Virus record (IMG/VR): IMGVR_UViG_3300005512_000043
Coordinates: 1 to 56,401 of that record
Origin: a virus
Reading direction: 5' to 3' (one strand)
DNA: 56,401 nt
In this document: in pieces, positions 3,558-54,440 of the stretch
Position numbering within the stretch: position 1 is the first letter of the stretch
Layout of the letters: the number at the start of each line of letters is the position of its first letter
Program-made: the position numbers and the translations under genes
The notes under the pieces: model-generated
Database searches by the model: none
The model's input: the letters and a program-made list of their open reading frames with translations, nothing else
Told to the model about the DNA's origin: nothing

Positions 3558-3565
3558 CCGAAAGA

Positions 3566-3823
3566 TCACTGTTTTGTGAATGTAACGGCTTGTTCTCCGG
3601 GCGACATCTCTAGCTCGAGGGCTCCCATGAGTCGACACAGGACGGCGTACGACACGGTCGTCTCGCGGTGCGACTCGATCTTGCACATGTAGCTCTTGCT
3701 GATGCGCGCTCTGCGTGCGACCTCGCTCGCCGTTACGTCTAGGTCGCTTCGACGAGCGACGACCTCCGTGCCACGAACGACCCACTTCGTAATCTCGTAC
3801 GGATAGGCGATTATCCCTGCCAT
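3566..3823 (-). CDS. XRE-family helix-turn-helix transcriptional regulator (85 aa)
   Basis: DLDVTASEVARRARISKSYMCKIESHRETTVSYAVLCRLMGAL has the classic XRE/Cro HTH pattern. Start moved to the ATG at 3823, which has GAGGAG 7 nt upstream. The track start at 3874 lies inside the upstream gene. Confidence 0.8.
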   Translation of the reverse strand: MAGIIAYPYEITKWVVRGTEVVARRSDLDVTASEVARRARISKSYMCKIESHRETTVSYAVLCRLMGALELEMSPGEQAVTFTKQ

Positions 3824-4152
3824 AAGACACTCCTCAGCTCGCCCATCGCACACGAGCGACAGACGGCGATCCACGGTCCACGGGTTCTCTTCATGACCTC
3901 GGGAAAGTCAACGAGCAGCATGCGACGAGCGACGACCCACTGGCGACTCTTTGTGCGTATGCGTCTACACACGGGGCAGCGTCTGTCGGGAACGAGGGCG
4001 TCGAGCTGGGCCTCTCTGTTCTTCACGCGACGAGCCTTCGCATACTGGCGTCGCTCGTCGGCGTCCCACCATTCGCATTTCAGTTCGCATGGGCGCAAAT
4101 GGTTTTCTTGCGACGAGCCATCTTCACTTGAGATTCTCTTAGTTTTGCTCAT
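3811..4152 (-). CDS. Hypothetical zinc-ribbon-like protein (113 aa)
   Basis: Contains a CPVC...CRSC cysteine pair and is Arg-rich. Its start codon lies inside the left inner arm of the palindrome, and its N-terminal coding region contains the left outer arm. Confidence 0.65.
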   Translation of the reverse strand: MSKTKRISSEDGSSQENHLRPCELKCEWWDADERRQYAKARRVKNREAQLDALVPDRRCPVCRRIRTKSRQWVVARRMLLVDFPEVMKRTRGPWIAVCRSCAMGELRSVLWQG

Positions 4153-4485
4153 GATTCAGTTCGCATAAGCGTCGATGCTAGACCACCGATCCGCTTGGTC
4201 CTCAGAAGCCGATGCACATGCACCGATAGGTAGTAGTATAGATGTATGCATAAGTAAAACTCCTTGATTAACTTATATCCTAACCAGTAGGCTACCCGGA
4301 CTTTCCCGGCAGATTCCGCGATAGTAGAAGTATCTAGTGGTGCACGTGCATCCAGTTCTATAGACTAGACCCGGTCGATGACCAACATCGACGCTTATGC
4401 GAACTGAACGGCGAGCAAAACTGCGGGCTATTTAAGCTCAGTCTTGTCAATCTCGCGACTCCCATTTACGCGCATGCGAACTGAA
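4079..4485. repeat. Nested inverted repeats around an AT-rich core (candidate origin or operator region)
   Basis: Outer arms are 4079-4102 (ttcagttcgcatgggcgcaaatgg) and 4462-4485 (reverse complement, 2 mismatches). Inner arms are 4142-4177 and 4386-4421: a 23-bp perfect match (ttcagttcgcataagcgtcgatg), a 4-nt mismatch, then 9 bp (gttttgctc). The 12-mer TTCAGTTCGCAT occurs four times (4079, 4155, and reverse complement at 4397 and 4474), symmetric about position ~4282. The core 4178-4385 is visibly AT-richer than the rest of the genome. Confidence 0.9.
4156..4251 (-). CDS. Possible 31-aa small ORF inside the AT-rich core
   Basis: AAGGAG (4265-4260), an 8-nt spacer, ATG (4251-4249), giving MHTSILLPIGACASASEDQADRWSSIDAYAN and a TGA at 4158-4156, 3 nt before the next ATG. 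The SD is strong, but the ORF is very short and not otherwise supported. Confidence 0.3.
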   Translation of the reverse strand: MHTSILLPIGACASASEDQADRWSSIDAYAN

Positions 4486-4866
4486 TCCATGCTCGATCAT
4501 TCGCCTGACGGCCTGCTGGATGCAGAGCCTCAAGTGCTTGCCGTCTTGCACGAAGTCCCAGAGCAGCCTCTGGTACTGCTTGTTGCGATAGTCCCACACC
4601 TCGAAGCTCGTCTTACTCCCGAGGTCTCTGAGTATCAGCACCGGTACGCCGGCCTTCAGGGCGCGCTCGTGCCACACCTTCTGTATCTCCCTGAGCTTCC
4701 CCTTGCCTCGCTTTGCCTCGATCCATAGCCCGGGGATGCCCGGTCCGACGACGTACCTGTCCGGGAAGCCGGCGGGTTGCATCTTACCCGCCACGAGTGG
4801 GTACACGTAGCACCCGACCTGCGTGAGCATCCTGCCCCACTCTCTCGTAAACTCATGCTCTGTCAT
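4447..4866 (-). CDS. VRR-NUC domain nuclease (PD-(D/E)XK fold)
   Basis: FPDRYVVGPGIPGLWIEAKRGKGKLREIQKVWHERALKAGVPVLILR matches the VRR-NUC D...E-x-K plus G-x-L-x3-Q-x2-W pattern. 139 aa. Confidence 0.75.
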   Translation of the reverse strand: MTEHEFTREWGRMLTQVGCYVYPLVAGKMQPAGFPDRYVVGPGIPGLWIEAKRGKGKLREIQKVWHERALKAGVPVLILRDLGSKTSFEVWDYRNKQYQRLLWDFVQDGKHLRLCIQQAVRRMIEHGFSSHARKWESRD

Positions 4867-5230
4867 AGAGATCTCCGATTCGCTTGAGTTCTCGGGCCCG
4901 GATCATCTTCTCGACGTCCGTCTCGATGAACTCACTCTCGGGCACGTAAACAGTCACTCGTATTTCACACCCGGCCTCCAGCACAGTCCGCTCGCAGTGA
5001 AAGCTCATCAGCTCCTCGCGTCGCGTGACCGTGATACCCTCCCGGGCGAGCTCCATGATCTTCTTGCCCTCAGGCGATAGGCCGCGCGTCCTTAGGCGGT
5101 CTACCTCCTGCGCCATCCTGTCGAGGTCACTCTGTGTTACTCGTCGCATCTCATCTGCTCCATACTCATCAATACCCGCGCGATATCGCCTTTCAGCCAC
5201 GCGGATACGAGCCATAACGTTGTCAGCCAT
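4853..5230 (-). CDS. Hypothetical protein (125 aa)
   Basis: Start moved to the ATG at 5230 (MADNVMARIRV...), which overlaps the upstream TGA by 8 nt. The upstream 81 codons of the track ORF overlap the preceding gene out of frame. Confidence 0.6.
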   Translation of the reverse strand: MADNVMARIRVAERRYRAGIDEYGADEMRRVTQSDLDRMAQEVDRLRTRGLSPEGKKIMELAREGITVTRREELMSFHCERTVLEAGCEIRVTVYVPESEFIETDVEKMIRARELKRIGDLYDRA

Positions 5231-5741
5231 CGCCAGGCCTCCAGAACTCGCACGTCTCGCAGTCTGGTTTCGTGCCGCCGTCAACGTGCATCGCCCAGCC
5301 GCAGCAGTAGCCAAGCGGCTCAGCCCGGAACGGGTACGTGCATCGCGGATTGGCGTTGCGGTACTTCTCGTAAGGGTTGGCGGCTTCACGGGTGGAGTAG
5401 AACGGGAAGTCGGACACATAGTTATGTCCACCCAACACACAGTGCCACGGTTTTGGATTAGGGTCTGGCCCAACTAATCCAGGTGCGGCGTTTGTCCATC
5501 CTCGCGGATCAATTTGCCACACAACGTCTACGCCCGGCACCACCGGCACCCCGTCCACCGTCCTGGGCAGCTTGTCCACGAGGGCCGTCAGCCGCTCGGA
5601 CATGACTGCAAGCTCCGCCTCAAGCTCGGCGATGCGATCCATCATGAAGTCAAAGCGACTCGCGACCCACTCAGGCTCTCGCCTGATCATGTCGCGTATG
5701 TTGCACTTCACATTATTGGAATCCATGTAGAGCCGTTCCAT
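5223..5741 (-). CDS. Hypothetical protein with a Cys-rich C-terminus (172 aa)
   Basis: ATG at 5741-5739 shares one base with the TGA of the upstream small ORF (TGATG); the GTG at 5744 is the alternative start. It has a coiled-coil N-terminus and C-terminal CTYPF...CCGW...CETC. Confidence 0.65.
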   Translation of the reverse strand: MERLYMDSNNVKCNIRDMIRREPEWVASRFDFMMDRIAELEAELAVMSERLTALVDKLPRTVDGVPVVPGVDVVWQIDPRGWTNAAPGLVGPDPNPKPWHCVLGGHNYVSDFPFYSTREAANPYEKYRNANPRCTYPFRAEPLGYCCGWAMHVDGGTKPDCETCEFWRPGDG

Positions 5742-5860
5742 CACTCACCTCGCCCGAAGTAGTCACGCATGATCTTGTCTATGTCGCGCTTCCACACCCA
5801 GTCGAGCAGGATGTATACGCCGAACAATGCGATCGCAATCCATTGGAGCACGTCGTTCAT
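5741..5860 (-). CDS. 39-aa small membrane protein
   Basis: MNDVLQWIAIALFGVYILLDWVWKRDIDKIMRDYFGRGE. Its ATG (5860-5858) overlaps the upstream TGA (ATGA), and its TGA (5743-5741) abuts the next start. It has a single hydrophobic helix and is too short for the ORF track. Confidence 0.55.
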   Translation of the reverse strand: MNDVLQWIAIALFGVYILLDWVWKRDIDKIMRDYFGRGE

Positions 5861-6057
5861 GCCTCACCGTCCTTTCTGTCCATCAATCGCTCTACCTTCA
5901 CAGCCCAATCGCCACGCACCGCGTCGTACCCGATATTACGCAGCGCGCGAAGTGCTCGGCGTAGCCCCGCTAGACCATGCACGACATGCGGCACACCGGG
6001 CTGCGGCGAGTAGCCATCGGTGCCAACATCCGCTGTCTCGATCGTGTAGCTTGCCAT
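5857..6057 (-). CDS. Hypothetical protein (66 aa)
   Basis: Start moved to the ATG at 6057 (MASYTIETADVG...), which shares one base with the upstream stop (TGATG). Confidence 0.55.
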   Translation of the reverse strand: MASYTIETADVGTDGYSPQPGVPHVVHGLAGLRRALRALRNIGYDAVRGDWAVKVERLMDRKDGEA

Positions 6058-6398
6058 CAGTTGGCCTCCATCACCGCGACGATGGCGCGGCAGAGGGCCA
6101 GGTTGAGGGTCGTCGCGGACACAGCAACAGCAGGCCCCGCTGTGATGATGTACCAACCACCTGCACATCGCAGGATGTTGACGATTGCGCAATGCTGCTC
6201 CAGCCACTTCACCATCTCGCCCACGAGCGAGTCGGCGCCCTCGTAGTCAGCAACACAGATTTCACCACCCGGCTTTAGCCAGGGCCGAATAAGGCTCCCT
6301 TGATGCCGCACGTTGTAGTTCAGTCGCTTCAGCCCCAGCGCCACCGCGACCCGTTCGGAGAGTGGGTCATGAGCATCGTTGAATGGGGTGTCAGCCAT
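6057..6398 (-). CDS. Hypothetical protein (113 aa)
   Basis: ORF track. TGATG coupling at both ends. Confidence 0.6.
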   Translation of the reverse strand: MADTPFNDAHDPLSERVAVALGLKRLNYNVRHQGSLIRPWLKPGGEICVADYEGADSLVGEMVKWLEQHCAIVNILRCAGGWYIITAGPAVAVSATTLNLALCRAIVAVMEAN

Positions 6399-6754
6399 CA
6401 GTTGTTCTCCAGGAACGCGCGGGCAACGGCCTCGGGGAAGGTTGTGCCGACGTACGACTTGATCTCATCACCGCCGTTGATCCACAGATCGCATCGGTAG
6501 CTCACCACGTCGCCGTTGTTACTGAAACTGTGCAAACTCGGTTGGTAGCCCGCCTTCACCAGCCGCCGCACCAGCTCCCCCATATTCGCCCAAGCTTCGT
6601 CGGTGTCGCCGGTGAAGTCTGAGCAATCATCCTGCGTCGCCCACGAACAATCATCACGCAGGCGTGCCCAGTACGATTGCATGAAGTGTGGTGGAGCCAC
6701 GTACTCCCACCCGCACGCCTTCGCGCACCGCTCGTTGACCTGGGCGTCAGTCAT
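6398..6754 (-). CDS. Hypothetical protein (118 aa)
   Basis: Start moved to the ATG at 6754 (MTDAQVNERCAKACGWEY...), with ATGA overlap to the upstream gene. The remaining 284 N-terminal codons of the 402-aa track ORF are an Arg-rich shadow of 6751-7950. Confidence 0.6.
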   Translation of the reverse strand: MTDAQVNERCAKACGWEYVAPPHFMQSYWARLRDDCSWATQDDCSDFTGDTDEAWANMGELVRRLVKAGYQPSLHSFSNNGDVVSYRCDLWINGGDEIKSYVGTTFPEAVARAFLENN

Positions 6755-7950
6755 CGTCTTCTCCTCAGGTGATAGCCGCCGATGTCCTCGCCGGCGATCG
6801 CTCTGTCGAGCATCGAGAAGTCGGGCCGCGATTGACGGAGCACCGCGTCGCAGTAGTGCTGTCTTCCCGCGGGGTCGCGATCGAACAGATCCGCCCAGCG
6901 TTCGAGGTCCATGCGGTTCATCACGCGATGCAAGGAGTCCGAGTTCCATACGCTGCGCAGCGGGTCGTAGCAGTTCTCGTGCTCGGGGTCCGTGCCCCAC
7001 GGCAGCGGGGCTGCTCCTTGCATCGCGTAGACGACGTGCTTCGTCGTCTGCCACCGGCGTCCGGCGGGAATCATCGGTCCGCAGGTAGTCTCCCTGAGTC
7101 GCTGATCTACCTCCGCGAGCGGCACCTGTCCGACGAAGACGTCCGGCCTGTAGCCGCTGAACTGCTCCCAATCTGCGCCCCATACGCGGGTCGTCGCCGG
7201 GTCCAGGTTGTCTAGCAGCCCGCTCCAGATCGCATCGCGGTGCCTCCACGGAAGGTTGCGCTCTTTCCGCAAGTGCGAGTGGGCCAGGACGCCGACCTTC
7301 CACGGTCGCGGTTCTGTATCCCTGTGCGGCTCGAGGCCATACTGAAACCAATTCTCGACGCCGGCGTAGACCGCCTCGACGTCGATGGCGTGATACTCGC
7401 GGCAAGTCTGCGTACGCTCCATGTTCTCCTGCGAGAGTACCGCTCGCGGGACGAAGTGCGGCCATATCAGCATCTCGTGGTGTCGCGGGTAGCATTTCGG
7501 ATCTGTCACGACGAGTATCCGACGCTGTACCTCGAGTTCCTTCGCCACTGCTAGGTACACGGTGCCGGTTTGCTGACAAGCGACGCGCTGCATCATGACG
7601 CCCCACGGGTTATCGACCACGAACATCGTTGAGTCGGTGCCCGGGAGCTCCACGAAGACATACGGTGGCGGCGCCTTTTCACGGATCTGTCTCGCGATCT
7701 CCTTGGCTGCTTCTTCCTGCGGAGCAGGCCCGTCCTCTGGCGTGACATGACCCACCGCCGTCTGGGCAACGGGACACGGCGCTGTGCCGAAGAGGCGACC
7801 CACGTAGCAGACGCTTTCATATTTGTCTGCGAGATAGCGTAACACACCCTGAGCATTGCGCGCGTCACCACGACTCGACGCTCGCGCCCCTGCAAGTGCA
7901 TCAGGCATCGTCAGGGCGGACCCGGTCTTGCTCACCAGTATCGACGTCAT
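6751..7950 (-). CDS. Putative glycosyltransferase, possibly DNA-modifying (399 aa)
   Basis: Start at the ATG 7950 (MTSILVSK...), with ATGA overlap to the upstream gene. The C-terminal half (GVLAHSHLRKE...VWGADWEQFSGYRPDVFVGQVPLAEV...TTKHVVYAMQGAAPL) resembles the nucleotide-sugar-binding half of GT-B enzymes such as T4 beta-glucosyltransferase. This is a by-eye judgement only. Confidence 0.35.
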   Translation of the reverse strand: MTSILVSKTGSALTMPDALAGARASSRGDARNAQGVLRYLADKYESVCYVGRLFGTAPCPVAQTAVGHVTPEDGPAPQEEAAKEIARQIREKAPPPYVFVELPGTDSTMFVVDNPWGVMMQRVACQQTGTVYLAVAKELEVQRRILVVTDPKCYPRHHEMLIWPHFVPRAVLSQENMERTQTCREYHAIDVEAVYAGVENWFQYGLEPHRDTEPRPWKVGVLAHSHLRKERNLPWRHRDAIWSGLLDNLDPATTRVWGADWEQFSGYRPDVFVGQVPLAEVDQRLRETTCGPMIPAGRRWQTTKHVVYAMQGAAPLPWGTDPEHENCYDPLRSVWNSDSLHRVMNRMDLERWADLFDRDPAGRQHYCDAVLRQSRPDFSMLDRAIAGEDIGGYHLRRRR

Positions 7951-8291
7951 TCGATTACCTCCACGAGTGGATGCCAGTGAAATACGTTCTTCTCTCTCGG
8001 TCCGAGCAGTACGACGCGCTTGCCGAGAGCGATCGCCGCGCCGATCTCGCTGTGTCTGCCGCCGCCGATGCTCTGATCGTCGCCCGTGAGGCAGTATACC
8101 GTATCGCAGCCTGCTAACTCCTCGAGGTCGCGCTCGGCCCACTCTCGGCAACGCTCGTCGCTCGGCTCCTCCGGATGCTCGACGTCGTGCCACGTACTCG
8201 TGACGTGGAACCCGGCGAGCCTGAGCCTGTCGGCTCTCGCTCTCGCCTCTCCGATGCGCGGCCAGCTCGCTGCTATGTAGATCTTCGACAT
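7947..8291 (-). CDS. Nucleoside 2-deoxyribosyltransferase-like protein (114 aa)
   Basis: MSKIYIAASWPR...ERDLEELAGCDTVYCLTGDDQSIGGGRHSEIGAAIALGKRVVLLG follows the NDT/DUF4406 Rossmann-like pattern (YIAg...D-l...cD...G-x-x-E-x-G-x-A). Start moved to the ATG at 8291. Confidence 0.55.
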   Translation of the reverse strand: MSKIYIAASWPRIGEARARADRLRLAGFHVTSTWHDVEHPEEPSDERCREWAERDLEELAGCDTVYCLTGDDQSIGGGRHSEIGAAIALGKRVVLLGPREKNVFHWHPLVEVIE

Positions 8292-8806
8292 TGCCTGATG
8301 ACCTCCGGTACGTGAACGTAACTCTCGAGCACCTGGTGAAAGAAGCTGTTGTACGTATCGCACGCGCGGCACGCCAGCTTGAACGTGTGACGGGCTATCT
8401 GCATTGCCTTCTGGCCATTGAGCGCGTAGGCGTGCAAGTTCAGCGTAGCGACGGCGATCTGCCAGCAGCCGCCCACGTATGGCTCGCTCGCCCTCACGCT
8501 GCCGCCGAACATGAGCATCTCCCACGTATCCGGCAGCGGATCGGGATAACCGACCCACTCGGCGTCGTCCTCGAGGATCATCACGCGTTGACACCCCGCC
8601 TGAAGAGCGTGCTCGATGGCCACCGCGTGGCTCTGTGTCACAGCGTAATACCGCGGCTGGTCCCGCCAGTAGCTCGGTGGCTCTATTTCACCGAGCACGA
8701 TCGCCTTTACGCGTAGGTCGGGCCACCGCTCATAAAACGAACTGACATCTTCGTGCAGGATCACGTACACGTTGTCGCCGAACGCATCGTTTAGCGCGTT
8801 TCCCAC
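8273..8806 (-). CDS. Glycosyltransferase family 25-like protein (177 aa)
   Basis: HAVAIEHALQAGCQRVMILEDDAEW resembles the GT25 (LPS galactosyl/glucosyltransferase) signature around ILEDD. Confidence 0.5.
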   Translation of the reverse strand: MGNALNDAFGDNVYVILHEDVSSFYERWPDLRVKAIVLGEIEPPSYWRDQPRYYAVTQSHAVAIEHALQAGCQRVMILEDDAEWVGYPDPLPDTWEMLMFGGSVRASEPYVGGCWQIAVATLNLHAYALNGQKAMQIARHTFKLACRACDTYNSFFHQVLESYVHVPEVIRQCRRST

Positions 8807-13477: not shown

Positions 13478-13511
13478 AAAAGAGGCGGTTGGTCTCTCGA
13501 CCAACCGCCTC
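13478..13511 (-). terminator. Rho-independent terminator
   Basis: Minus strand reads GAGGCGGUUGGUC-GAGA-GACCAACCGCCUC followed by UUUU. It is a 13-bp perfect stem lying between 13554-14003 and 13129-13455. Confidence 0.75.
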
Positions 13512-29547: not shown

Positions 29548-30371
29548 TGCTCTGTCCTTTCGAGTTGGGCGAGCACCACCTCGGTGGCACCCGCGAGCGT
29601 CCTAACGTCGGTGTCGATGAGCACGTCGTACCCACGTCGCATAGGCTCGGGTAACTTACGCACGCTACCGAGGCCTGGATTCGCGGGCTTGGGCACCACG
29701 CGATCGACCGCGGCGTGCGTAATGCGTCGAATGAACCCGACCTCGGCGCAGGCCTCGGCAACCGCCTCGATGTTCAGCGGCTCGTCGGGTTGCTTGACCA
29801 CGAGTTCCTGCACGAAGGATGAATTACCGTCCCAGAGTCGAGCCACCGACCAGAACGTCGTGATCTCAACCGCGACGCCCATCGAACCCAGAACGTCGGC
29901 GAGGACCACCGCGGCGGCTCCTCTATAGACCAGGTTCTCCGGTGACTCGAAGTGGATCGTGACTGAGTTAACCGCGATGCGCACGAGTGTCTTCTCGCGA
30001 AATACGCGAGTAAGGCCGCTCCAGCCCTGAGGATCACGCCGAAGCCAGGCCTCGGACTCTAGCTCATCGCCGTCCTCCAATCGCCGGCGCAGCTTGCGTC
30101 GCTTGCGCTCGGGCGGCTGGATCTGCCCCTCGATCCGCTCGCGCACCGCCTCGATGGCATCGCGTACTCGCGCGTTGCCGCGCTGCAGGTGCGACTCGAG
30201 GTCGCCGAGGGTCATGTAGTTGTAGAACTTGTTCGCGCGATCGTGCAAGTGGCGGCTTGCCTCGTGAGCCCCGTACGGTGTGTTCGCCTCGCCCTTGCAC
30301 GCGTACTCGAACAGCGCGCTGAGCGAGTCGAACGTCACCACGTCGATGTCGTTTGTTCTCGTGGGCTTCAT
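29544..30371 (-). CDS. Partner of the AAA+ ATPase, degenerate vWA/CobT-like (275 aa)
   Basis: ATGA-coupled to the AAA+ gene. The beta-alpha segment TLVRIAVNSVTIHFESPEN...AAAVVLADVLGSMGVAVEI looks vWA-like but lacks a clear DxSxS MIDAS motif. Confidence 0.4.
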   Translation of the reverse strand: MKPTRTNDIDVVTFDSLSALFEYACKGEANTPYGAHEASRHLHDRANKFYNYMTLGDLESHLQRGNARVRDAIEAVRERIEGQIQPPERKRRKLRRRLEDGDELESEAWLRRDPQGWSGLTRVFREKTLVRIAVNSVTIHFESPENLVYRGAAAVVLADVLGSMGVAVEITTFWSVARLWDGNSSFVQELVVKQPDEPLNIEAVAEACAEVGFIRRITHAAVDRVVPKPANPGLGSVRKLPEPMRRGYDVLIDTDVRTLAGATEVVLAQLERTEQ

Positions 30372-31618
30372 GCGTCACCTCTGATTCTGCGCTGCTCGTC
30401 GGCGGACCAGCCCTCGAAAAACGTGCTCTTCACGAGCGCGAAGTCGGCACCGGCTTTGAGTAGCTTGGCGCCGTCCTCTACGTTGCGAGTGGACATGAGT
30501 CGCTGTAGCTTCGCTTCCGCGATCCGCATACGCACGCCCCAGCACCACGCGAGCCACTGCCCCGCGGTCGCCTCATCGTCCAGAATGGCCTCGACGATCG
30601 CACGCTCGAGATCCTGGTCGAAGTCCACGGTCACGGTGCCCATCGTGAACCGATTCAGCGTCGCCGCGTCGAGACGATTGCGACCGACGTACACGCGATC
30701 GGCCCCGTGGCCGTACGTGTTCGCCGCCGCGATGATGACGCAGTCGGGGTGCTGCTCGTATGGCTCGGGTCGAGCGAACGGAATGGACAGCTTGCGATTT
30801 GCGATCGCAGCGTTGACTTGCACGAGCAGATTCGGGTCGGAGCCGTCGATCTCATCGAGCAAGTGCACGCCGCCGCTCGTGTACGTGTGCACGAACGGAG
30901 ACGGCGCATACTTCCAGTTACCGTCCTCGTCTGGCAGCGTGCGACCCAGAAGAACCGACTCGCTCACGCCCTCACTCATGGAGTTGAACGTGAACGGAAG
31001 CTCGAGGGCCTTCGCGAGTTGAGCTGCGAGAAACGTCTTCCCGGAGCCCGATGGACCCACGAGTAGAAGCGGTAGCCCCGCGGATACCTTGAGCATGGAC
31101 TCACGAAAGCTCTTGTGAAGCGTCTCGCCGTCGAGCTCAACCTTGGAGTCGCGCTGCTGCACGACCACGGTGATGTTCGGCTTCTTGCCGACCTCATCTC
31201 GCACGATGGCGCGAACGTCGTCCTCCGTCGTGATCGCGTCCTCGTCCTCGACGTTCAACTCGTCGAACACCTGTCTCGCGAGTCGCTTGATGTCGGCCTC
31301 GTCCACGTAGGCTTTCTTCTCGCCAACGTCCTCGATGCTGACAGTCACCTCGCCGGGGAGCTTGTTGCCCTCGCTATCGTACGCGTACGACATGCGGAGT
31401 CCCCGCTCGCGTGCAGAGCCGACGCGCTTCCACGCGCCCGAGCCCTCGTTGAACTGCTTGCGTCGCCGAGCGACCTTCGCCGGCGACCGCACGGAGGAGT
31501 CGGGGTAGTGGGACTGTACAATCGTAACGATCTCCTCGTCCGTGAGCTTAGGCGAGTCGTCCGCCTGCTCGTTGCGCATGAGGAGCCTCTCTAGCAATCT
31601 GTTCACCGTCCTTGCCAT
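30368..31618 (-). CDS. AAA+ ATPase of the MoxR/CobS (AAA_5) type (416 aa)
   Basis: Motifs are LLLVGPSGSGKTFLAAQLAKAL (Walker A), GGVHLLDEIDGSDPN (Walker B) and RLDAATLNRF (sensor/arginine region). ATG at 31618 shares one base with the upstream stop. Confidence 0.8.
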   Translation of the reverse strand: MARTVNRLLERLLMRNEQADDSPKLTDEEIVTIVQSHYPDSSVRSPAKVARRRKQFNEGSGAWKRVGSARERGLRMSYAYDSEGNKLPGEVTVSIEDVGEKKAYVDEADIKRLARQVFDELNVEDEDAITTEDDVRAIVRDEVGKKPNITVVVQQRDSKVELDGETLHKSFRESMLKVSAGLPLLLVGPSGSGKTFLAAQLAKALELPFTFNSMSEGVSESVLLGRTLPDEDGNWKYAPSPFVHTYTSGGVHLLDEIDGSDPNLLVQVNAAIANRKLSIPFARPEPYEQHPDCVIIAAANTYGHGADRVYVGRNRLDAATLNRFTMGTVTVDFDQDLERAIVEAILDDEATAGQWLAWCWGVRMRIAEAKLQRLMSTRNVEDGAKLLKAGADFALVKSTFFEGWSADEQRRIRGDA

Positions 31619-31908
31619 CACGCACCCCCGATCTGCGCCGCCAGGCGCTTGATCTCGTCGATCGTCGGGGCTGCGGCCTTAACCTGCAACGCCTTGAGAG
31701 CCTCGCGGACCTCGGGGAGTTGCTGTTTCGCCGTAGCGTTGGCGGCCACCATGGCCTCCTTCTTCGCTACGGCTGCGGCGATGATCTCGTCCTGGGCCGC
31801 CAAGCGGCGTTCCAGCAGCGAGTCATCCGCATCCCGCTCAAGATTCCTGACTCTCGCTCTCGCGATCTTCAGGTTAATCCTGAGCGCCTCGTCATCGATG
31901 CGCTTCAT
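31618..31908 (-). CDS. Hypothetical coiled-coil protein (96 aa)
   Basis: AAGGAG SD upstream of the ATG at 31908. This is the first cistron downstream of hammerhead copy 31926-31989. Confidence 0.65.
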   Translation of the reverse strand: MKRIDDEALRINLKIARARVRNLERDADDSLLERRLAAQDEIIAAAVAKKEAMVAANATAKQQLPEVREALKALQVKAAAPTIDEIKRLAAQIGGA

Positions 31909-31925
31909 GACTGTCTCCTTTCTGT

Positions 31926-31989
31926 CGGCCTGTCTCGTCAGCGCCCGCTAGGCCACGGCGGGCGGACGGGCCCCGCGGCCCGTTTCGAC
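31926..31989 (-). ncRNA. Type II hammerhead ribozyme candidate (copy D)
   Basis: Minus strand reads GUC GAAAC GGGCC-GCGG-GGCCC GUC CGCCCGC-CGUGGCCUA-GCGGGCG CUGACGA GAC AGGCCG. The core is complete, with stem III 7 bp, stem I 7 bp and stem II 3 bp. The stem I loop UGGCCU pairs with the 3' tail AGGCCG. It starts 1 nt after the stop at 31991; predicted cleavage is 3' of the C encoded at 31965. Confidence 0.8.
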
Positions 31990-31990
31990 G

Positions 31991-32221
31991 CTAGTCATTG
32001 AGGACGTGCACGATCTTGTTGCTGGAGTGGCAGTTGTAGGCCCAGCCAGCGACCTCGTTGCTTCCCGCGTAGTAGATGCGGTGGCACTTACGCATCACGT
32101 AGCCGTCCACCTTGAACGTCGTCGGGAAATAACCAGGCGGCCACTCCAAGTCCGACGCTTCCACGACTCCAAGCCGCGCGGTCTGCCAGTCTACTACGCT
32201 CTTGTCTGTGACTAACACCAT
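31991..32221 (-). CDS. Hypothetical protein (76 aa)
   Basis: AAGGAG SD 9 nt upstream of the ATG at 32221. Flanked on both sides by hammerhead candidates. Confidence 0.65.
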   Translation of the reverse strand: MVLVTDKSVVDWQTARLGVVEASDLEWPPGYFPTTFKVDGYVMRKCHRIYYAGSNEVAGWAYNCHSSNKIVHVLND

Positions 32222-32239
32222 GTTCTATGCTCCTTTCGT

Positions 32240-32299
32240 CGGGCTGCTCATCAGGTCGGCCTCGCCCAAGGGCCGACGACGCCCCGAAGGGCGTTTCGC
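32240..32299 (-). ncRNA. Type II hammerhead ribozyme candidate (copy C)
   Basis: Minus strand reads GC GAAAC GCCC-UUCG-GGGC GUC GUCGGCC-CUUGGGCGA-GGCCGAC CUGAUGA GCA GCCCG. The core is complete, with stem III 6 bp, stem I 7 bp and stem II 2 bp. The loop UGGGC pairs with the tail GCCCG. It starts 1 nt after the stop at 32301; predicted cleavage is 3' of the C encoded at 32278. Confidence 0.75.
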
Positions 32300-32300
32300 T

Positions 32301-32582
32301 TCACTGCTCGCGCTTCTCCCACTCCTCGAGGAGTGCGAGACCGTTGTTCACGGCCTCGAGCTGGATCGTTAGGTGCATCCGCACCTGCTGCAGGTACACG
32401 CTCGCGGCACGAGCGTTGCCGTCGCGAAGGCGATGGCTGACCTTGATCGGGTTGGCACGGGCCACGAACGTCGTAAACTTGTTCAGCCACTTGCCCGTGC
32501 CGAGAACTCTCTCGACTGCCGCGGAGAATAAGTGCGGCGTCCTGAGCTCCTCGACCCACTTGGTGCTCTCGATCGTTGACAT
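32301..32582 (-). CDS. Hypothetical protein (93 aa)
   Basis: Start moved to the ATG at 32582 (MSTIESTKW...), with AAAGGA 7 nt upstream. The track start at 32612 is the AUG inside the CUGAUGA ribozyme core. Confidence 0.65.
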   Translation of the reverse strand: MSTIESTKWVEELRTPHLFSAAVERVLGTGKWLNKFTTFVARANPIKVSHRLRDGNARAASVYLQQVRMHLTIQLEAVNNGLALLEEWEKREQ

Positions 32583-32598
32583 GCTGTCATCCTTTCGT

Positions 32599-32665
32599 TC
32601 GAGCTGGCTCATCAGGCCGCGAGTGCTCGATGCTCGCGACGACGGGCCCGAAGGCCCGTTTCGCC
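32599..32665 (-). ncRNA. Type II hammerhead ribozyme candidate (copy B)
   Basis: Minus strand reads GGC GAAAC GGGCC-UUCG-GGCCC GUC GUCGCGAG-CAUCGAGCA-CUCGCGGC CUGAUGA GCCA GCUCGA. The core is complete, with stem III 7 bp, stem I 8 bp (one G-U) and stem II 3 bp. The loop UCGAGC pairs with the tail GCUCGA (6 bp). It starts 4 nt after the stop at 32670; predicted cleavage is 3' of the C encoded at 32641. Confidence 0.8.
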
Positions 32666-32669
32666 GAGT

Positions 32670-33098
32670 TTACTTCTTGATCAGCTCCGCGATCTCCGTC
32701 TGGGTGAGACCCGCGTCGACGAGCTGCTGCTTGAGGTCGCGCATCCGATCCTTCGCGCGCTTGACCTTCTCGGCCTTCTTCGCCCCGCGTATCTTCTCGC
32801 GCTCGGCCTTCTTCGCCTCGCGCTCGGCCTTCTTCGCCTCGTGCTCAGCCGCGGTGTTCAGGCGGACAACCTTCTTGTCTACCTGATCCTGGAGCTTGCC
32901 GGCGAACTCCTTCACGGCGCCGACGCGCTTCAGGGCCGCGTTGGTGTCCACACCCTTCTTGAGTGCGGCCCCGAGTTCACTGATCAAGTCGTCGCATGCC
33001 TTGCGGAATGCGGCAATCGACAACTCGACCTTGACGGCTCGGTCATCGTTCTTGGTCTCAGCCTTCTTGGCCACAGTAGCTTTGCTCTTCTTCGACAT
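32670..33098 (-). CDS. Lys/Ala/Glu-rich basic protein, possibly nucleic-acid binding (142 aa)
   Basis: MSKKSKATVAKKAETKNDD...KKAEREAKKAEREKIRGAKKAEKVKRAKD. AAAAGGA SD upstream. This is the first cistron after the long leader. Confidence 0.65.
   Translation of the reverse strand: MSKKSKATVAKKAETKNDDRAVKVELSIAAFRKACDDLISELGAALKKGVDTNAALKRVGAVKEFAGKLQDQVDKKVVRLNTAAEHEAKKAEREAKKAEREKIRGAKKAEKVKRAKDRMRDLKQQLVDAGLTQTEIAELIKK
32798..32839. repeat. Perfect 21-bp tandem duplication inside the basic-protein gene
   Basis: cgcgctcggccttcttcgcct occurs twice (32798-32818 and 32819-32839), encoding the repeated AKKAERE heptad. Confidence 0.9.
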
Positions 33099-33158
33099 GA
33101 CTGTTGTCCTTTTGCGAGCGAGTGTATTCCGCCGCGATGCTCGCCGATCGCGGTAGAG

Positions 33159-33219
33159 CGAGCTGTCATCATCAGGCCGGGTAGCTCATCTCCCGACGAC
33201 GGGCCTTGCGGCCCGTTTC
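33159..33219 (-). ncRNA. Hammerhead-like element in the 5' leader (copy A, stem II degenerate)
   Basis: Minus strand reads (AAAUC) GAAAC GGGCC-GCAA-GGCCC GUC GUCGGG-AGAUGAGCUA-CCCGGC CUGAUGA UGAC AGCUCG. The core, stem III (7 bp), stem I (6 bp) and the loop/tail pairing (UGAGCU:AGCUCG) are present. Positions 10.1/11.1 are U/C and no stem II is evident. Confidence 0.55.
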
Positions 33220-33537
33220 GATTTGGTAGGAGAACAGGTGCATGTCCGTCCGCTTCGCTACTCAGTCGAGTCTGCTGCGTGCGCTTTACGCCTCCCGCCT
33301 CTCGGCCATCGGCAACGCCGCGAACCAGCATTCGTGCGCCGGTGCTCCGGCTCCAGCTCGCTCGCCTTTCGCTCGTCGGCTAACTTGTCAATTCGACCCG
33401 ACTGGCCCGCCCCGCCAAGCGCCCAGAATCGCAAGGCTAGCGGCTACACGATCAACGCCCCGGGAGCAAGCGGCCGTGTTGGTCAATCCAAAACTCATAG
33501 CTGTATTATCGACCAAACAGGCCCCGGCTGTCCATAG

Positions 33538-33644
33538 CTGTTTAAGTCTCGGCGAAATCACAAGTTATAGAGGCTATACCCGCGGCTTCCCCGGCTCCCG
33601 AAGGCGAGGCCGCTTGAGCTAACTATAGTGTTTTCAGGCACTTA
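33538..33644 (-). promoter_or_regulatory. Conserved intergenic motif, copy 2 (split version)
   Basis: Minus strand has TAAGTGCCTGAAAACACTA (33644-33626) and, 76 nt downstream, AGACTTAAACAG (33549-33538). The same two blocks are joined, sharing one base, at 14232-14261. It lies about 530 nt upstream of the first early cistron. Confidence 0.45.
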
Positions 33645-33747
33645 GCGACGTAGTCTATGCGAGAAAAACGCCTCTAAGTCGTGACATGCACCGGGTTTAT
33701 CGGGGTCCATACGCGGCCGCTGCGGGCCGCCGCCCCGGATCGGCTGG

Positions 33748-49669: not shown

Positions 49670-49856
49670 AGCGAATACCTCCATCGCCCTCTACGGGCTT
49701 GTCGTGCGGATTATCCCCATACGCGATGTCGTTGGGTATGCCGTCCGGAAACGCATCGCAGGTGACGCGCTCGGTATCTTCCCGGTCTTGATCCTGCTTC
49801 ACGCCGCGAAAATGAACACACCGTCGTGCGAAGCACTTGGGTTCTTCTATGCTCAT
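49653..49856 (-). CDS. Hypothetical protein (67 aa)
   Basis: ATGA overlap with the stop of the MuF-like gene. Confidence 0.5.
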   Translation of the reverse strand: MSIEEPKCFARRCVHFRGVKQDQDREDTERVTCDAFPDGIPNDIAYGDNPHDKPVEGDGGIRYERAG

Positions 49857-52800
49857 GACGCGCCTCCGACGTACTTAGCGAGGAGATCTATGACGCTCTT
49901 CGGCAATCGTTTACCGGCGCTCTCATAGAGCGGCGACGACCGAATACTCAGCGCCTCAGCGAAGAGTTCCTTGTGATTCATATTCACCCCATAGTATGAC
50001 ACTTGCTTCGCTCTGAGTGTGGGGCGAAGCGCGTAGAGCGCCTCGTTTAACTCAGCCATATTCGGAGCAACAGAATGCAGTGCATGAGCAAACTCGTGGC
50101 GCGCGATGTCTGGCACGTAGCGATAAGAAGCGTTAAACGATCCTATCGCTGGCGCGTTCGAGCCAGTCGGTCTAGCCGCCGCGATCTTCATCGTTCGCGT
50201 GCTACCACTCCATGTACCGGCTGACATCCCGCCCTTGCTGTTTGCATAAGCCGTCTCGTTACGCATCTCGATCCAGTTAACCGTGCGTCGGCCCCGCTTG
50301 ATGCCAGCCAGCGACGCATCGCGAAGAGTCGGAGCCGTATCGTACACCGCGTCGATAGACTCTTCTACAGCTCGAAGCTTTTCTAGCTTTAACGAATCAG
50401 GCACATCCTCGAACCCAACCCATCGCACCTTGGCCCCGGTCTTCTTTCGGAGCCTGTTCTCGATCGCACGCAGACCACCAGAGGGCACCGACACAGGCGG
50501 CTTCGCTGTCACCTTCGGCACGGGCGGCGCGACCGCCTCGCCCTTAGCCGCGGCGAGCTTTGTCTTGAGATCCATGAGCTCTTTGCGGGCTGCTTTCTTC
50601 GCAGGACCCGCGAGCAGCGACCGATACGCCTTGCGAGCCTCGCGCGTCTGCGCCTGAAGCGCCTTCACGGATGAGCTCACGGTGCTCTTGGTCACCGGTG
50701 GCTTGATCAGCGAGGCGAGATCGTCGGCCGCGGACGGCGGAATGAACTCAACCTGGTAGACCGTCTTCATCACATGCGACGGACCAGAGATGCCGTATCG
50801 CACGTTCTTCTTAACCGCTATGACGCGAAACTGAGCTTTGTCGTGGAAAAGCCACTCAGTTTCCCCGGAATTGAAACCGCGAACGACGCCTCGGTCACCC
50901 TTACGAACGAATATCTCAATACAAGCACGACCGTCTTGGGCGAAATAATTCTGAGGATATGTGCCCACGGACGTGAAACCTCGGACGCGATACGCCTTGC
51001 CTGTCTCCCACCGCGGATCTGTCTTTACGAAGCGATACAAGACGCGATCCTTCGGCACCGGCGGCGTCTCACGCATCGCCGCCTTGATCCACTTCACGTT
51101 TTCTTTCACGGTAGCGGCATTCTGCTTGACGCCAAGAGTCGAACCCGTACGCAGATACTTGTTGATCGCCTTGTACCCCGGTCCCGAGTTGTAGTTGCGA
51201 AATGACCGCTCGACTCTCTCGGCGTCGCCGAGCTTCTTTTTGAGCTTTTCGTAGGCCGGCACGTCTTGCTTATGATACGTCTCTCGCGTCTTTCGCTCAT
51301 CTGCCCACGCCCAGCGACGCTTCGTTGGAAACTTAACGGGCGACCGTCTGGTGATCTTCGTCGGCGCAATCTTGAACTTTGCCTTCGTGACCTGAGTCGA
51401 GGGACGAAGAGGCACGAAGATCTGCACCTTTTGCCCAGGACCGACATACTCCCACGACATCGCGCTGTCGAAGCCCTCAGCGATCAAGGCTTTTCGTACT
51501 TTTGCAATATGAAGTTCGTCCGCGCCCTCGAGTAAGGCCATCCCGTGATCGGTGACCCAGTCGTCTACGTCGTCGGCTGTCACGCCGACTTGTTTCGCTA
51601 TGCGAGCGACATCTTTATCTGTGGCTACTTTGCCGAGCTTAGCGCTGACAGGCTTGATCTTCGCCGGCTCGTCTGAAAATGAACTCCAATGCGCCGCAAG
51701 ATCGTCCTCGCTCGACGCGAGTATATGCACACCTTCAGCATGAGCCTCAAACATCGGCTTCACGTCACCCTTAACCACTCCAACATGCACTTTCTTGACT
51801 GGTGCAGGCCCCGACTTGGCTTCCTCGAGTGCCGCCTTGAGCTCCATGAGCTTCTTGCGAGCAGCTGCTTTCTCAGGGCCCTTGGGAAGAGACTTCCACA
51901 GCTTGCGGGCTTGCTTGGTCGCCTCCTTGAGTTCCTCGAGCGTCTGCGGCACGACCGATGCGAGCTCGCCGAGGCCCGCCTCGAGTCGAATCTGCGCAAG
52001 CGTCAGCGGCTTGTAGTCGCCGCTCACGAACGCGGTGATCGGCAGCTTGTTCTCGAGGAATAACTTCGCTCGTCCGGGCCCGAGCACCTGTCGCACGAAC
52101 GGCGGCTTCTGCTGACGCAGCCATTTGCCGTACGTCAGTCGCGCGGGCACTTGCCCGTTCATGCTCGCCCGCGTAGCCGCGGGTAGTTTATTAGGATCGA
52201 GGCCGAGCTCCTGCCACGACGCGATCACCGGAATCGTAAACGACCGACACTGATGATGCATTGGCGGCCTGGGTCCTTGGTTCGTCTTGAACGTCTTGCC
52301 GTCTAGCGACATGCAGATGTCGGTCGTTCGTGCGTCGAGCGTCGAGACGAATTGCACCTCTTTCACGATGTCAGCGTTGGCTTTGTACGTCTCCTCGGCC
52401 GCGTGATTCACCGTGTGAGACACCGCGGTCCGCACCGTCGCCTCGACGTCGCGTCGCAACTGCGCGATCGGGCCCTTGCGAAAAGCGTTGGCCGCCGAGC
52501 CAATAACTCGACGTCTGATCTTTCCAACGCTCTCACCAGTCGCCATGCCGATGTTGATCTCGCGCTTGACAGCGGCTCTCGCCTTTGCGTTCGCCCCGTC
52601 CCACCACTTCTTGAGCAACTGTCCGCGCATCGGTCGCGAGGTCACGATGCTGTTGAGTAGCCCCGGGGTCGGCGTCACGGTGTCCCACTGGAGCGGCATC
52701 GCCTCTCGCAGCATAGCTGCCGACTTTTCGGCCTGCGTGAGGGCCACTTGCTTCAGCTCGTCCCTGACCTGCGGGTAGACCCGACTCATGCTCGTAGAAA

Positions 52801-53041
52801 TAGTAGTGTCGACCGCCTGCGTCAGCTCCTTCATGCGCGCGGTGACCTTCGGACCTCGATCGAGTGCAAACTCTGAGGCCGCGATGCGCTTGAGACGCTT
52901 GTTGAGCTCCCGCCTGAGATGAGGTCGCACGTCGCGATCGAGCATGCGCACGACCTTCGTCGTTACACCGCTCTTGTATCGCTCCATAGCGACAGCGTGG
53001 GCGATCGCCTTGTCCTGGAGTAATTCATTCGTCGTCGGCAT
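49853..53041 (-). CDS. Polyvalent head protein: MuF/SPP1 gp7 domain + ADP-ribosyltransferase domain + HExxH metallopeptidase-like domain (1062 aa)
   Basis: The MuF motif is STLDARTTDICMSLDGKTF...PPMHHQCRSFTIPV (about 52350-52225). The ART motifs are YKAINKYLR, VLYRF (Arg), GFTSVG (S-T-S like) and GETEWLF (ExE), at about 51210-50800. HEFAHALH lies at 50098-50075. Start moved to the ATG at 53041. Confidence 0.8.
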   Translation of the reverse strand: MPTTNELLQDKAIAHAVAMERYKSGVTTKVVRMLDRDVRPHLRRELNKRLKRIAASEFALDRGPKVTARMKELTQAVDTTISTSMSRVYPQVRDELKQVALTQAEKSAAMLREAMPLQWDTVTPTPGLLNSIVTSRPMRGQLLKKWWDGANAKARAAVKREINIGMATGESVGKIRRRVIGSAANAFRKGPIAQLRRDVEATVRTAVSHTVNHAAEETYKANADIVKEVQFVSTLDARTTDICMSLDGKTFKTNQGPRPPMHHQCRSFTIPVIASWQELGLDPNKLPAATRASMNGQVPARLTYGKWLRQQKPPFVRQVLGPGRAKLFLENKLPITAFVSGDYKPLTLAQIRLEAGLGELASVVPQTLEELKEATKQARKLWKSLPKGPEKAAARKKLMELKAALEEAKSGPAPVKKVHVGVVKGDVKPMFEAHAEGVHILASSEDDLAAHWSSFSDEPAKIKPVSAKLGKVATDKDVARIAKQVGVTADDVDDWVTDHGMALLEGADELHIAKVRKALIAEGFDSAMSWEYVGPGQKVQIFVPLRPSTQVTKAKFKIAPTKITRRSPVKFPTKRRWAWADERKTRETYHKQDVPAYEKLKKKLGDAERVERSFRNYNSGPGYKAINKYLRTGSTLGVKQNAATVKENVKWIKAAMRETPPVPKDRVLYRFVKTDPRWETGKAYRVRGFTSVGTYPQNYFAQDGRACIEIFVRKGDRGVVRGFNSGETEWLFHDKAQFRVIAVKKNVRYGISGPSHVMKTVYQVEFIPPSAADDLASLIKPPVTKSTVSSSVKALQAQTREARKAYRSLLAGPAKKAARKELMDLKTKLAAAKGEAVAPPVPKVTAKPPVSVPSGGLRAIENRLRKKTGAKVRWVGFEDVPDSLKLEKLRAVEESIDAVYDTAPTLRDASLAGIKRGRRTVNWIEMRNETAYANSKGGMSAGTWSGSTRTMKIAAARPTGSNAPAIGSFNASYRYVPDIARHEFAHALHSVAPNMAELNEALYALRPTLRAKQVSYYGVNMNHKELFAEALSIRSSPLYESAGKRLPKSVIDLLAKYVGGAS

Positions 53042-54440
53042 CTGCGTCGTCGTCTTCCTCAGGTGTATAACCCAAGTTTGCCTCTTCGGCCTCGAGGGCC
53101 TCGATCTCAGCATCGACGTCCAGTGTATCTGCGAGCAAGCCGCGGCGCTTGAGTTCATAGAGCAGCTGCCGGCGAGTGATGTCCTTGTTCTTGCGAGCCT
53201 CGAGTAGTTGCTTGACGTCCGTTGCCTCTCGTGCGCTAAGCAAGAAGTCGCTGTACACGTCGAAGCTCACGTCGTCCGACAGCTCGACGTTGAGCCACTT
53301 GCCCGCCACCTCAAACATGCGACGCAGCCCGGTCTCCATCGCTCTGATCCACGCCTGTATCTCCGCGTGTGCCCGCGACTCGCTGATGGCCTGACCAGTT
53401 GCGGTCGGGTTCCCCGAGCGCTTGAGTAAGGGCTGCAGCCCGAGCGTCTCCATCTCTTCGCGGAGCATCGAGAGATCACGCTCGCCGGCCGCGATTGCCG
53501 CGCCTGTGTGCTCCACGTAGTCGAGCGTCGCGTCGGCGTTAGTCGATGAGATCAAGCGATTGGGTCCGATCTCAAAGCCCTTCTCTTGCTCTTCCTCGCT
53601 GATGCCCGAGGCAAACAACAGCGCGAACCTCGAGAAGCGAAGCACGTTACGCTGATCAGAGCCCGACTGATAGTGCTCAAGGTTCTTCCAAGCAAGGTCC
53701 TCTAGCGGCGGATCGGCGACCATGAACCCGGTCTTGTTGAAGTACACGGTCACCAACGGGATTCCGTTGGGATACGTGAACTTTCCCTCGTCTGTCAAAA
53801 CGTACTTCTTCTCTTCCACGTTGAAGGCGTAGAGGCGCCACTTGCCGGGCTCGAGTACCCTGACGTAGCTCACCTTCTTGTCACCGAAGTCACCGTCTGA
53901 CTCAATGCGCGTCTCGGTGATGCGCACTTGCGTGAGCTTGACGTCGCCGAGTGTGTTCTCCTCAGTCTGCCATCCGATGAGATCATCGGGATGAATCTTC
54001 ACGAAGATCGGTCGAAGCCCGAGCTTGCGTTGATCCTCGAGCGTCTGCGCTTGTACCCGCGGGTAATCCACGAGCACGTGACACAGCCCGCGATCGATGG
54101 CCGTATTCATCACGTCGCGAGCAAAATCACCGAGACTCGTCGAGGAACGATCGACGGCATCCACGAGTGGCTGCAGGGCCTCGGGTAACTGACCGTTTAC
54201 CGACAGCGGCTTTGCGAACGGCTTGCCGGCGAGCTTGGTCACAGTGTCGTCGTATGCGTTGAACAGGAACGTTCGGTTGAGACGCACCTCGTACGCCGAT
54301 GTGGACTCCTTGGTCTCCTTGGGGAGATAGGTCTCACCCGCGTCGCGCATCGACTGCGTACCTCCACGGAGCGCCCTCAGGAGCCCCCACTTCGCTTCCA
54401 TCTCCAGGTACGCCGTCCCTTTATCATTTACGTCGGCCAT
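53025..54440 (-). CDS. Portal protein (471 aa)
   Basis: It lies between the large terminase and the MuF-like gene, and its size and acidic C-terminal tail fit. The N-terminus (KWGLLRALRGGTQSMRDAGETYLPKE) resembles DUF4055-type portals. Confidence 0.75.
   Translation of the reverse strand: MADVNDKGTAYLEMEAKWGLLRALRGGTQSMRDAGETYLPKETKESTSAYEVRLNRTFLFNAYDDTVTKLAGKPFAKPLSVNGQLPEALQPLVDAVDRSSTSLGDFARDVMNTAIDRGLCHVLVDYPRVQAQTLEDQRKLGLRPIFVKIHPDDLIGWQTEENTLGDVKLTQVRITETRIESDGDFGDKKVSYVRVLEPGKWRLYAFNVEEKKYVLTDEGKFTYPNGIPLVTVYFNKTGFMVADPPLEDLAWKNLEHYQSGSDQRNVLRFSRFALLFASGISEEEQEKGFEIGPNRLISSTNADATLDYVEHTGAAIAAGERDLSMLREEMETLGLQPLLKRSGNPTATGQAISESRAHAEIQAWIRAMETGLRRMFEVAGKWLNVELSDDVSFDVYSDFLLSAREATDVKQLLEARKNKDITRRQLLYELKRRGLLADTLDVDAEIEALEAEEANLGYTPEEDDDADADDE

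Follow-up and report, generated by a model that had tools for sequence, protein, structure and literature searches.

The viral record IMGVR_UViG_3300005512_000043 of IMG/VR, analysed here over its whole length of 56,401 nucleotides (nt; hereafter the window), carries on its minus strand a compact array comprising four hammerhead ribozymes of type II, named A to D in the direction of transcription, interspersed with four small genes encoding proteins of 142, 93, 76 and 96 amino acids (aa). The order of the array is A, 142-aa gene, B, 93-aa gene, C, 76-aa gene, D and 96-aa gene, and its features and immediate neighbours, in the direction of transcription, are the following:

33224 to 33747, minus strand: non-coding leader or control region, 524 nt between the tail module and the early genes, without coding signal
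33159 to 33221, minus strand: type II hammerhead A, ahead of the 142-aa gene within the non-coding leader; C17 at 33198
32670 to 33098, minus strand: 142-aa gene, Lys/Ala/Glu-rich product, bounded by A and B; GC content at third codon positions (GC3) 0.85, positive in-frame codon score
32599 to 32665, minus strand: type II hammerhead B, separating the 142-aa gene from the 93-aa gene; C17 at 32641, pseudoknot 3' strand 32604-32599
32301 to 32582, minus strand: 93-aa gene, bounded by B and C; start at 32582 preferred
32239 to 32299, minus strand: type II hammerhead C, separating the 93-aa gene from the 76-aa gene; C17 at 32278, pseudoknot 3' strand 32244-32239
31991 to 32221, minus strand: 76-aa gene, bounded by C and D
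31926 to 31989, minus strand: type II hammerhead D, separating the 76-aa gene from the 96-aa gene; C17 at 31965, pseudoknot 3' strand 31931-31926
31618 to 31908, minus strand: 96-aa gene, predicted first cistron on the fragment released by D; its stop codon shares bases with the beginning of the ATPase gene
30368 to 31621, minus strand: CobS/MoxR-like AAA+ ATPase gene (AAA_5; phrog_249), 417 aa, carried together with the 96-aa gene on one predicted cleavage fragment

The whole window was scanned with cmscan against Rfam 15 with curated thresholds, the gathering score of the family RF02276 (Hammerhead_II) being 37 bits. Exactly four matches to this family were obtained in the 56.4 kb, all on the minus (coding) strand, within 1.3 kb, above the gathering score and full length (model positions 1-66):

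33223 to 33157, minus strand: Rfam match of copy A, 40.3 bits, E-value 8.4e-05
32666 to 32598, minus strand: Rfam match of copy B, 41.7 bits, E-value 3.5e-05
32301 to 32238, minus strand: Rfam match of copy C, 50.3 bits, E-value 2e-07
31990 to 31924, minus strand: Rfam match of copy D, 44.1 bits, E-value 8.5e-06

When the window was scanned permissively against Rfam (E<=1, whole length, both strands, 4227 families), only the four hammerheads and no further family came up, and no tRNA was found in the window. An independent descriptor, composed of GAAA, a stem III closed by the A15.1-U16.1 pair, H17, the hairpin of stem I, the string CUGANGA and at least 2 base pairs (bp) in stem II, retrieved the same four sites and no others on both strands of the 56 kb, and gave no match in five replicates of shuffled controls of 1 Mb of related sequence. 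Since the Rfam scores exceed the gathering threshold and the descriptor finds nothing in the shuffled controls, a chance origin of the hammerhead motifs is excluded. The intergenic gaps of about 80 nt found elsewhere in the window were inspected for degenerate hammerheads and none was seen, two of these gaps corresponding to terminator-like hairpins.

An earlier note on this DNA, prepared from the sequence alone, had described three type II hammerheads, B, C and D, in the gaps between the small genes. Their strings, coordinates and parsing read as quoted there on the minus strand between 31500 and 33200, the RF02276 covariance model recovers them at 41.7, 50.3 and 44.1 bits, and the cleavage sites that had been predicted coincide with the C17 residues located by the descriptor scan (32641, 32278 and 31965, in segment coordinates). 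The assignment to type II holds as well, the curated model exceeding its gathering score for all copies and B, C and D agreeing with the consensus criteria of Perreault et al. 2011. The total of three has to be corrected, as the fourth copy, A, lies at 33221-33159 (40.3 bits), before the first small gene.

The segments of each copy succeed one another in the order stem II 5' strand, GAA, stem III hairpin, C17, stem I hairpin, CUGANGA and stem II 3' strand, which is the type II permutation. The consensus core (C3 U4 G5 A6 N7 G8 A9, G12 A13 A14, A15.1-U16.1 and H17) is present in the four copies, position N7 being U in A, B and C and C in D, and H17 being C in all of them; the intact core claimed for B, C and D in the earlier note (CUGAYGA, GAA, A15.1-U16.1 and C17) is complete in the three copies. 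The core-adjacent pairs G10.1-C11.1, G/C1.1-C/G2.1 and A15.1-U16.1 are all formed in B, C and D, where the core has no insertion. Copy A combines a 2-bp stem II (UC/GA), a 7-bp stem III with a GCAA loop, a 6-bp stem I and the pseudoknot UGAGCU:AGCUCG; copy B a 3-bp stem II, a 7-bp stem III with a UUCG loop, an 8-bp stem I and the pseudoknot UCGAGC:GCUCGA; copy C a 2-bp stem II, a 6-bp stem III with a UUCG loop, a 7-bp stem I and the pseudoknot UUGGGC:GCCCGA; and copy D a 3-bp stem II, a 7-bp stem III with a GCGG loop, a 7-bp stem I and the pseudoknot UGGCCU:AGGCCG. The loop of stem I is 9 nt long in B, C and D. Stems I and III were recovered by nested minimum free energy (MFE) folding for A, C and D.

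Comparative evidence had to be drawn from distant phages. No megablast match to the window was found among 50,697 phage records (INPHARED), and a single-protein scan of IMG/VR for relatives found nothing; 86 related loci totalling about 1 Mb were gathered with the ATPase as an anchor, its best homologues being 45-59% identical. A covariance model seeded by a gapless two-sequence alignment (copy C and one relative) detected 24 hammerheads in the window and 82 related loci (1.03 Mb), that is 20 beyond the window, and the descriptor detected 17 further type II hammerheads in related loci; all are on the gene strand and several of those from relatives were also confirmed by Rfam. In the alignment of the 24 related ribozymes, which is fitted to the model's own structure and whose covariation counts have to be read accordingly, 97.8% of the cells form standard pairs, and in 14 of the 16 pairs both partners change in a compensatory way. 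The remaining two, G10.1-C11.1 and A15.1-U16.1, are invariant, which is what a hammerhead should show, and sliding the 3' partners by 1-3 columns as a control lowered the pairing to 31-55%. MAFFT alignments of the copies were structurally misregistered and were excluded from pair counting.

The pairing of loop I with the 3' tail follows the same pattern. In all four copies, 6 nt of loop I pair with 6 nt starting 0-1 nt after stem II (for a criterion of at least 4 bp), and the sequences involved differ among A to D, each loop forming 6 bp with its own tail and 3-4 bp in most cross-combinations. This specificity extends to 21 related ribozymes, for which none of 20000 tail permutations reached the observed mean. 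Both the covarying stems and the copy-specific pseudoknot put forward in the earlier note are thereby borne out, the former by the 97.8% of paired cells and the 14 of 16 compensated pairs across the 24 related ribozymes, the latter by the 6 bp in every copy and the permutation test (0/20000). It is shown by computation that the RNA can adopt a three-way junction in which loops cap stems I and III, stem II stays open and loop I pairs with the 3' tail.

Copy A differs from the others by an extra U (33168) between A9 and G10.1, at odds with the absence of insertion among the family criteria, and it agrees with all the other criteria that could be computed. The same A9/G10.1 insertion is found in the unrelated relative L072 (4203-4266). 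The CChMVd hammerhead likewise has an extra nucleotide at this place, and with a U there it cleaved 3-4-fold faster (De la Pena and Flores 2001, as related in PMC3705267). According to the same secondary account, the CChMVd (+) hammerhead, with its extra A10, shares with copy A and L072:4203 the additional nucleotide between A9 and G10.1, but it is a viroid type III ribozyme assayed in trans whereas copy A is of type II with a 2-bp stem II. Because of its recurrence in L072 and of the favourable effect of a U at this site in CChMVd, copy A can by analogy be regarded as a variant and is not obviously a dead copy. Its core-adjacent insertion, together with the inactivity of some of the hammerhead-like sequences studied by Perreault et al. 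(PMC3088659), would fit with motifs that no longer cleave and persist as stabilising hairpins or functionless relics, a reading that we consider very unlikely. All 13 consensus core positions are kept in four diverged copies while the stems and the pseudoknot change in a compensatory manner, which is unexpected without selection on the catalytic fold, and a U inserted at the same position is reported, through PMC3705267, to accelerate the CChMVd hammerhead 3-4-fold.

The distribution of the ribozymes among the related loci is uneven. In L005, four hammerheads were found by the covariance model in the early region (1850-4925), and four distinct sites were found in L060 when the three methods were combined (2106-8399). 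Several of the L005 and L060 hammerheads score below the Rfam gathering threshold (31-34 bits) despite a perfect core, so that threshold-based annotation under-counts type II hammerheads. A hammerhead lies between the ATPase and DUF7192 genes in L033 (7914-7973), L036 (2121-2170) and L045 (7843-7892), whereas these two genes overlap by 4 nt in the window, which indicates that ribozymes are gained and lost at the junctions of conserved genes. A tblastn search with the DUF7192 protein of the window gave no match in L033, L036 and L045, where Pfam then confirmed the DUF7192 domain. The hammerheads of these three loci and those of L040 and L061 have a loop I of 3-5 nt and no adjacent pseudoknot of at least 5 bp, which suggests that the relatives with a short loop I use a different tertiary contact. 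Two candidates were discarded from the comparison: L087, the sole other contig with the genes of the array, is 100% identical to the window and thus uninformative, and the Rhizobium phage RHph_X2_24 has a different gene order.

The four small open reading frames (ORFs) of the array are considered real genes because of their GC3 of 0.80-0.85 and clearly positive in-frame codon scores. None of the four proteins had a match in Pfam or PHROG. The 76-aa protein retrieved only itself from a set of 5.8 billion proteins in a word-indexed search, and an exhaustive phmmer search of 1.84 billion representatives with the 93-aa protein gave only the self-match (100% identity) and two weak partial matches, to proteins of more than 1,100 aa (E-values 2.8e-05 and 8.4e-04). 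The longest ORF of the 93-aa gene, from 32612, would start at an AUG within the CUGAUGA core of B, and a gene caller favouring the longest ORF would for this reason hide the ribozyme inside a coding sequence; the hammerhead at L005:3351-3419 likewise lies inside a called gene.

The lack of homologues of the 76-aa and 93-aa proteins in such large sets raises the idea that a hammerhead, a Shine-Dalgarno sequence and a small ORF form a plug-in module, by which an early gene newly acquired by horizontal transfer, for instance for host takeover or anti-defence, would be expressed independently of its position in the operon. It is in keeping with the small and non-conserved nature of the ORFs flanked by such ribozymes (PMC6155905) and with the cluster that flanks the anti-restriction gene ardA (PMC3088659). 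Nevertheless, the hammerheads located between the conserved ATPase and DUF7192 genes of L033, L036 and L045 indicate that ribozymes come and go without gene gain, and no ribozyme-gene cassette common to two genomes was found; we consider this explanation doubtful.

The spacing within the array is tight. In B, C and D, respectively 4, 1 and 1 nt separate the preceding stop codon from stem II, the Shine-Dalgarno region, which reads GAAAGGAG after C and D and GAAAGGAU after B, begins 2-3 nt after the pseudoknot, and the start codon follows the end of the pseudoknot by 16-17 nt, so the intergenic spacer is fully made up of ribozyme and ribosome-binding site. These measurements agree with the spacing given in the earlier note for the three copies (motif 1-4 nt past the stop codon, Shine-Dalgarno 2-3 nt past the pseudoknot). 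No gene lies upstream of copy A, and its distance to the start codon of the 142-aa gene is 60 nt. The ribosome-binding sites are placed as follows:

31906 to 31922, minus strand: ribosome-binding site GAAAGGAG and AUG of the 96-aa gene, 3 nt past the pseudoknot of D
32219 to 32237 (after C), 32580 to 32596 (after B) and 33096 to 33113 (after A), minus strand: ribosome-binding sites at equivalent places

Among the 21 hammerheads found by the descriptor in the window and its relatives, 16 have a stop-to-motif distance of -1 to +6 nt, and in those 16 a start codon with a Shine-Dalgarno lies 13-40 nt past the end of the motif. The size of the ribosome footprint is well established, and a ribosome terminating at a stop codon would cover roughly the next 10 nt, which here correspond to the stem II 5' strand and GAA. 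A competition between ribozyme folding and ribosome loading is plausible on these steric grounds.

This wedging between stop codon and ribosome-binding site could mean that translation gates the processing, the ribozymes being active and their cleavage regulated by the ribosome traffic on both sides. A terminating ribosome would keep in its mRNA channel the 5' strand of stem II, G12-A14 and the beginning of stem III, and an initiating 30S subunit would overlap the pseudoknot 3' strand; this proposal is in our opinion rather unlikely. The tight spacing in the window (4, 1, 1 nt and 16-17 nt), its recurrence in distant relatives (16/21) and the overlap of the ribozyme expected from a ribosome footprint of established size speak for it, but the spacing may only mirror the economy of compact phage genomes, which have no spare intergenic sequence, copy A is without upstream gene and 60 nt away from its start codon, and nested folding gave no cleavage-dependent change of Shine-Dalgarno accessibility for B-D. 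For the latter three, a switch based on sequestration of the Shine-Dalgarno was rejected, the pair probabilities of the precursor and of the 3' product showing no consistent change. The stronger version of the proposal, in which the near-zero distance from stop codon to stem II and the 2-3 nt from pseudoknot to Shine-Dalgarno are a selected feature and each hammerhead is a ribosome-gated switch, kept unfolded by terminating and initiating ribosomes so that cutting of the operon is confined to the places and times at which translation lapses, appears slightly less likely again. If true, it would convert translational status into a segment-specific fate of the mRNA in early infection. Downstream of A, a 7-bp hairpin (CCGCGAU...AUCGCGG) occupies 33132-33153 (minus strand), between the hammerhead and the ribosome-binding site of the 142-aa gene, whose Shine-Dalgarno is predicted by nested folding to be far more exposed after cleavage of A (unpaired probability from 0.27 to 0.85).

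All the long ORFs of the window are on the minus strand, and the window is a tailed phage genome, complete-looking at 56 kb. The first genes in the direction of transcription encode a portal-like protein (DUF4055), a MuF-like protein, a P22-type coat protein and a tape measure protein, followed by a GTA-like tail protein, a DUF2793 tail-fibre protein and the 524-nt stretch without coding signal. After the array come the CobS/MoxR-like AAA+ ATPase, DUF7192, an SNF2 helicase, a Toprim primase, a C5 methylase and a DNA polymerase A. As it falls between the tail genes with the leader and the replication genes, the ribozyme array stands at the head of the early/replication module. The leader holds a sigma-70-like site, TGGACA-18-GATAAT, at 33534-33505, the only one there, which is presumed from its sequence to be the start of the ribozyme-bearing transcript. 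More generally, the 524-nt leader may hold an early promoter or other control elements, and gaps of 400-450 nt are present at its place in the relatives L005 and L006. Hairpins resembling intrinsic terminators and followed by U runs occur at 13478-13511 and 2903-2933, both intergenic and on the coding (minus) strand, in the replication/late-early region. A role of stem III as an intrinsic terminator was rejected, no U run following it and no terminator-like site being found on the minus strand between 31500 and 34000. Positions 49853-53158 (minus strand) encode a 1101-aa protein with phage Mu F-like head morphogenesis and ADP-ribosyltransferase exoenzyme domains, which resembles a MuF-fused toxin.

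Judged by the known chemistry of such ribozymes, each copy would cut 3' of its C17 (33198, 32641, 32278 and 31965), leaving a 2',3'-cyclic phosphate on the upstream product and a 5'-OH on the downstream one. The cut at A would remove the leader, and the cuts together would yield three single-gene mRNAs (142, 93 and 76 aa) and a longer 3' RNA carrying the 96-aa gene, the ATPase gene and what follows. The earlier note held all the products to be monocistronic, which fails downstream of D, where the 96-aa gene shares its end with the beginning of the 417-aa ATPase gene and there is no later ribozyme. Each upstream product would end one nucleotide past the GC-rich stem III tetraloop hairpin, and each downstream product would start with a 5'-OH nucleotide paired in a structure of stem I and pseudoknot, 2-3 nt ahead of the Shine-Dalgarno. 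A 5'-monophosphate stimulates the decay of bacterial mRNA, which requires the 5' end to be single-stranded, and the same holds of the 3' end for 3' exonucleases. Both of the new RNA ends should resist decay, since they would be structured, with a 5'-OH at one of them, and decay needs single-stranded ends. The array would in this manner uncouple the stability and the translation of each early cistron from those of its neighbours.

The same predicted termini, 5'-OH and 2',3'-cyclic phosphate, would also suit ligation, and the gene-length fragments could be re-ligated into circular or spliced RNAs by reversal of the hammerhead reaction or by an RtcB-type ligase, a possibility raised by Perreault et al. 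(PMC3088659). It seems extremely improbable here, as the chimeric stem II across the fragment ends would have just 1, 2 and 1 bp, and the same authors sought such products from tandem sets and found none (PMC3088659).

Taken as a whole, we hold it highly probable that the minus strand at 31926-33221 encodes four type II hammerheads, one before each of the first four genes of the early operon, which cut themselves after C17 and most likely serve the insulation of the cistrons, this purpose being inferred. Several points weigh against it. Copy A departs from the strict consensus by its inserted U and has the lowest scores (40.3 bits with Rfam, 26.8 bits with our own covariance model), and for copy B nested MFE folding favours a competing helix built from the pseudoknot strands. 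The folding energies are unremarkable, with z-scores from -2.0 to +0.2 in this GC-rich RNA, and were given no weight either way. The candidate promoter is a consensus match only. Several relatives, among them L002 and L003, have no ribozyme in the corresponding region, from which it follows that the ribozymes are not essential to the module. Finally, natural hammerheads of bacteria or phages have never been shown to act in insulation or stability, and their function remained to be defined according to a 2019 review (PMC6765202).

The array of the window has close counterparts in the literature. Perreault et al. 2011 described clustered, pseudoknotted type II hammerheads flanking small non-conserved phage genes (PMC3088659), and the persistent link of such ribozymes with phages and with small non-conserved ORFs was underlined in a 2017 review (PMC6155905). 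In prophages, type II hammerheads that have this pseudoknot and cluster around single genes show efficient cleavage both in vitro and in E. coli, three other tandem sets cleaved in vitro, and a processing into single-gene mRNAs was proposed; shortening a 6-bp pseudoknot to 4 bp slowed cleavage about 20-fold (PMC3088659). By analogy with this standard proposal for such clusters, the early transcript of the window is inferred to be cut into gene-length pieces. The permutation, the core, the 2-3-bp stem II and the 6-bp pseudoknot between loop I and the tail 3' of stem II are those of RF02276 and of the type II ribozymes of Perreault et al., from which B, C and D do not differ and copy A differs by its one extra U between A9 and G10.1. 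Like the prophage clusters of Agrobacterium tumefaciens (a triple set around ardA), Azorhizobium caulinodans and Clostridium scindens, the array places several ribozymes on one polycistronic phage transcript, each bounding one gene or a short block, with gene identities that are not conserved (PMC3088659). It differs from them in consisting of four consecutive copies, all of type II, at the start of the early module of an uncultured phage and in having a first copy predicted to trim a non-coding leader, and cleavage, demonstrated for the prophage sets, is predicted for the window.

In Desulfovibrio vulgaris, three type II hammerheads near phage-like genes cleave in vivo (cyPhyRNA-seq, PMC8782182); they resemble those of the window in lying beside hypothetical or phage-like genes but occupy three separate loci and do not form an array. 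The synthetic insulators RiboJ and VtmoJ (Lou et al. 2012, as presented in PMC6993053) provide a functional parallel, with a hammerhead just upstream of each ribosome-binding site that removes the upstream context and leaves a 5' hairpin; as far as that account goes, they are engineered type III ribozymes derived from sTRSV, with an added hairpin and no pseudoknot, and thus of another permutation than the array. Under the explanation by cistron insulation, the array of the window would work like these synthetic devices. As the same architecture and genomic pattern are already in the literature (PMC3088659), the array is not novel in kind and represents neither a new RNA class nor a new principle.

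The biological role of bacterial and phage hammerheads is still to be established (PMC6765202, PMC6155905). This locus is an unusually clean natural test bed, with four consecutive type II ribozymes of consensus quality at the head of an early operon, wedged between stop codons and ribosome-binding sites. Related phages have comparable arrays, or lone ribozymes placed between genes that are conserved. The array could serve to test whether such ribozymes act in the insulation of cistrons, in differential mRNA stability or in a response to translation.

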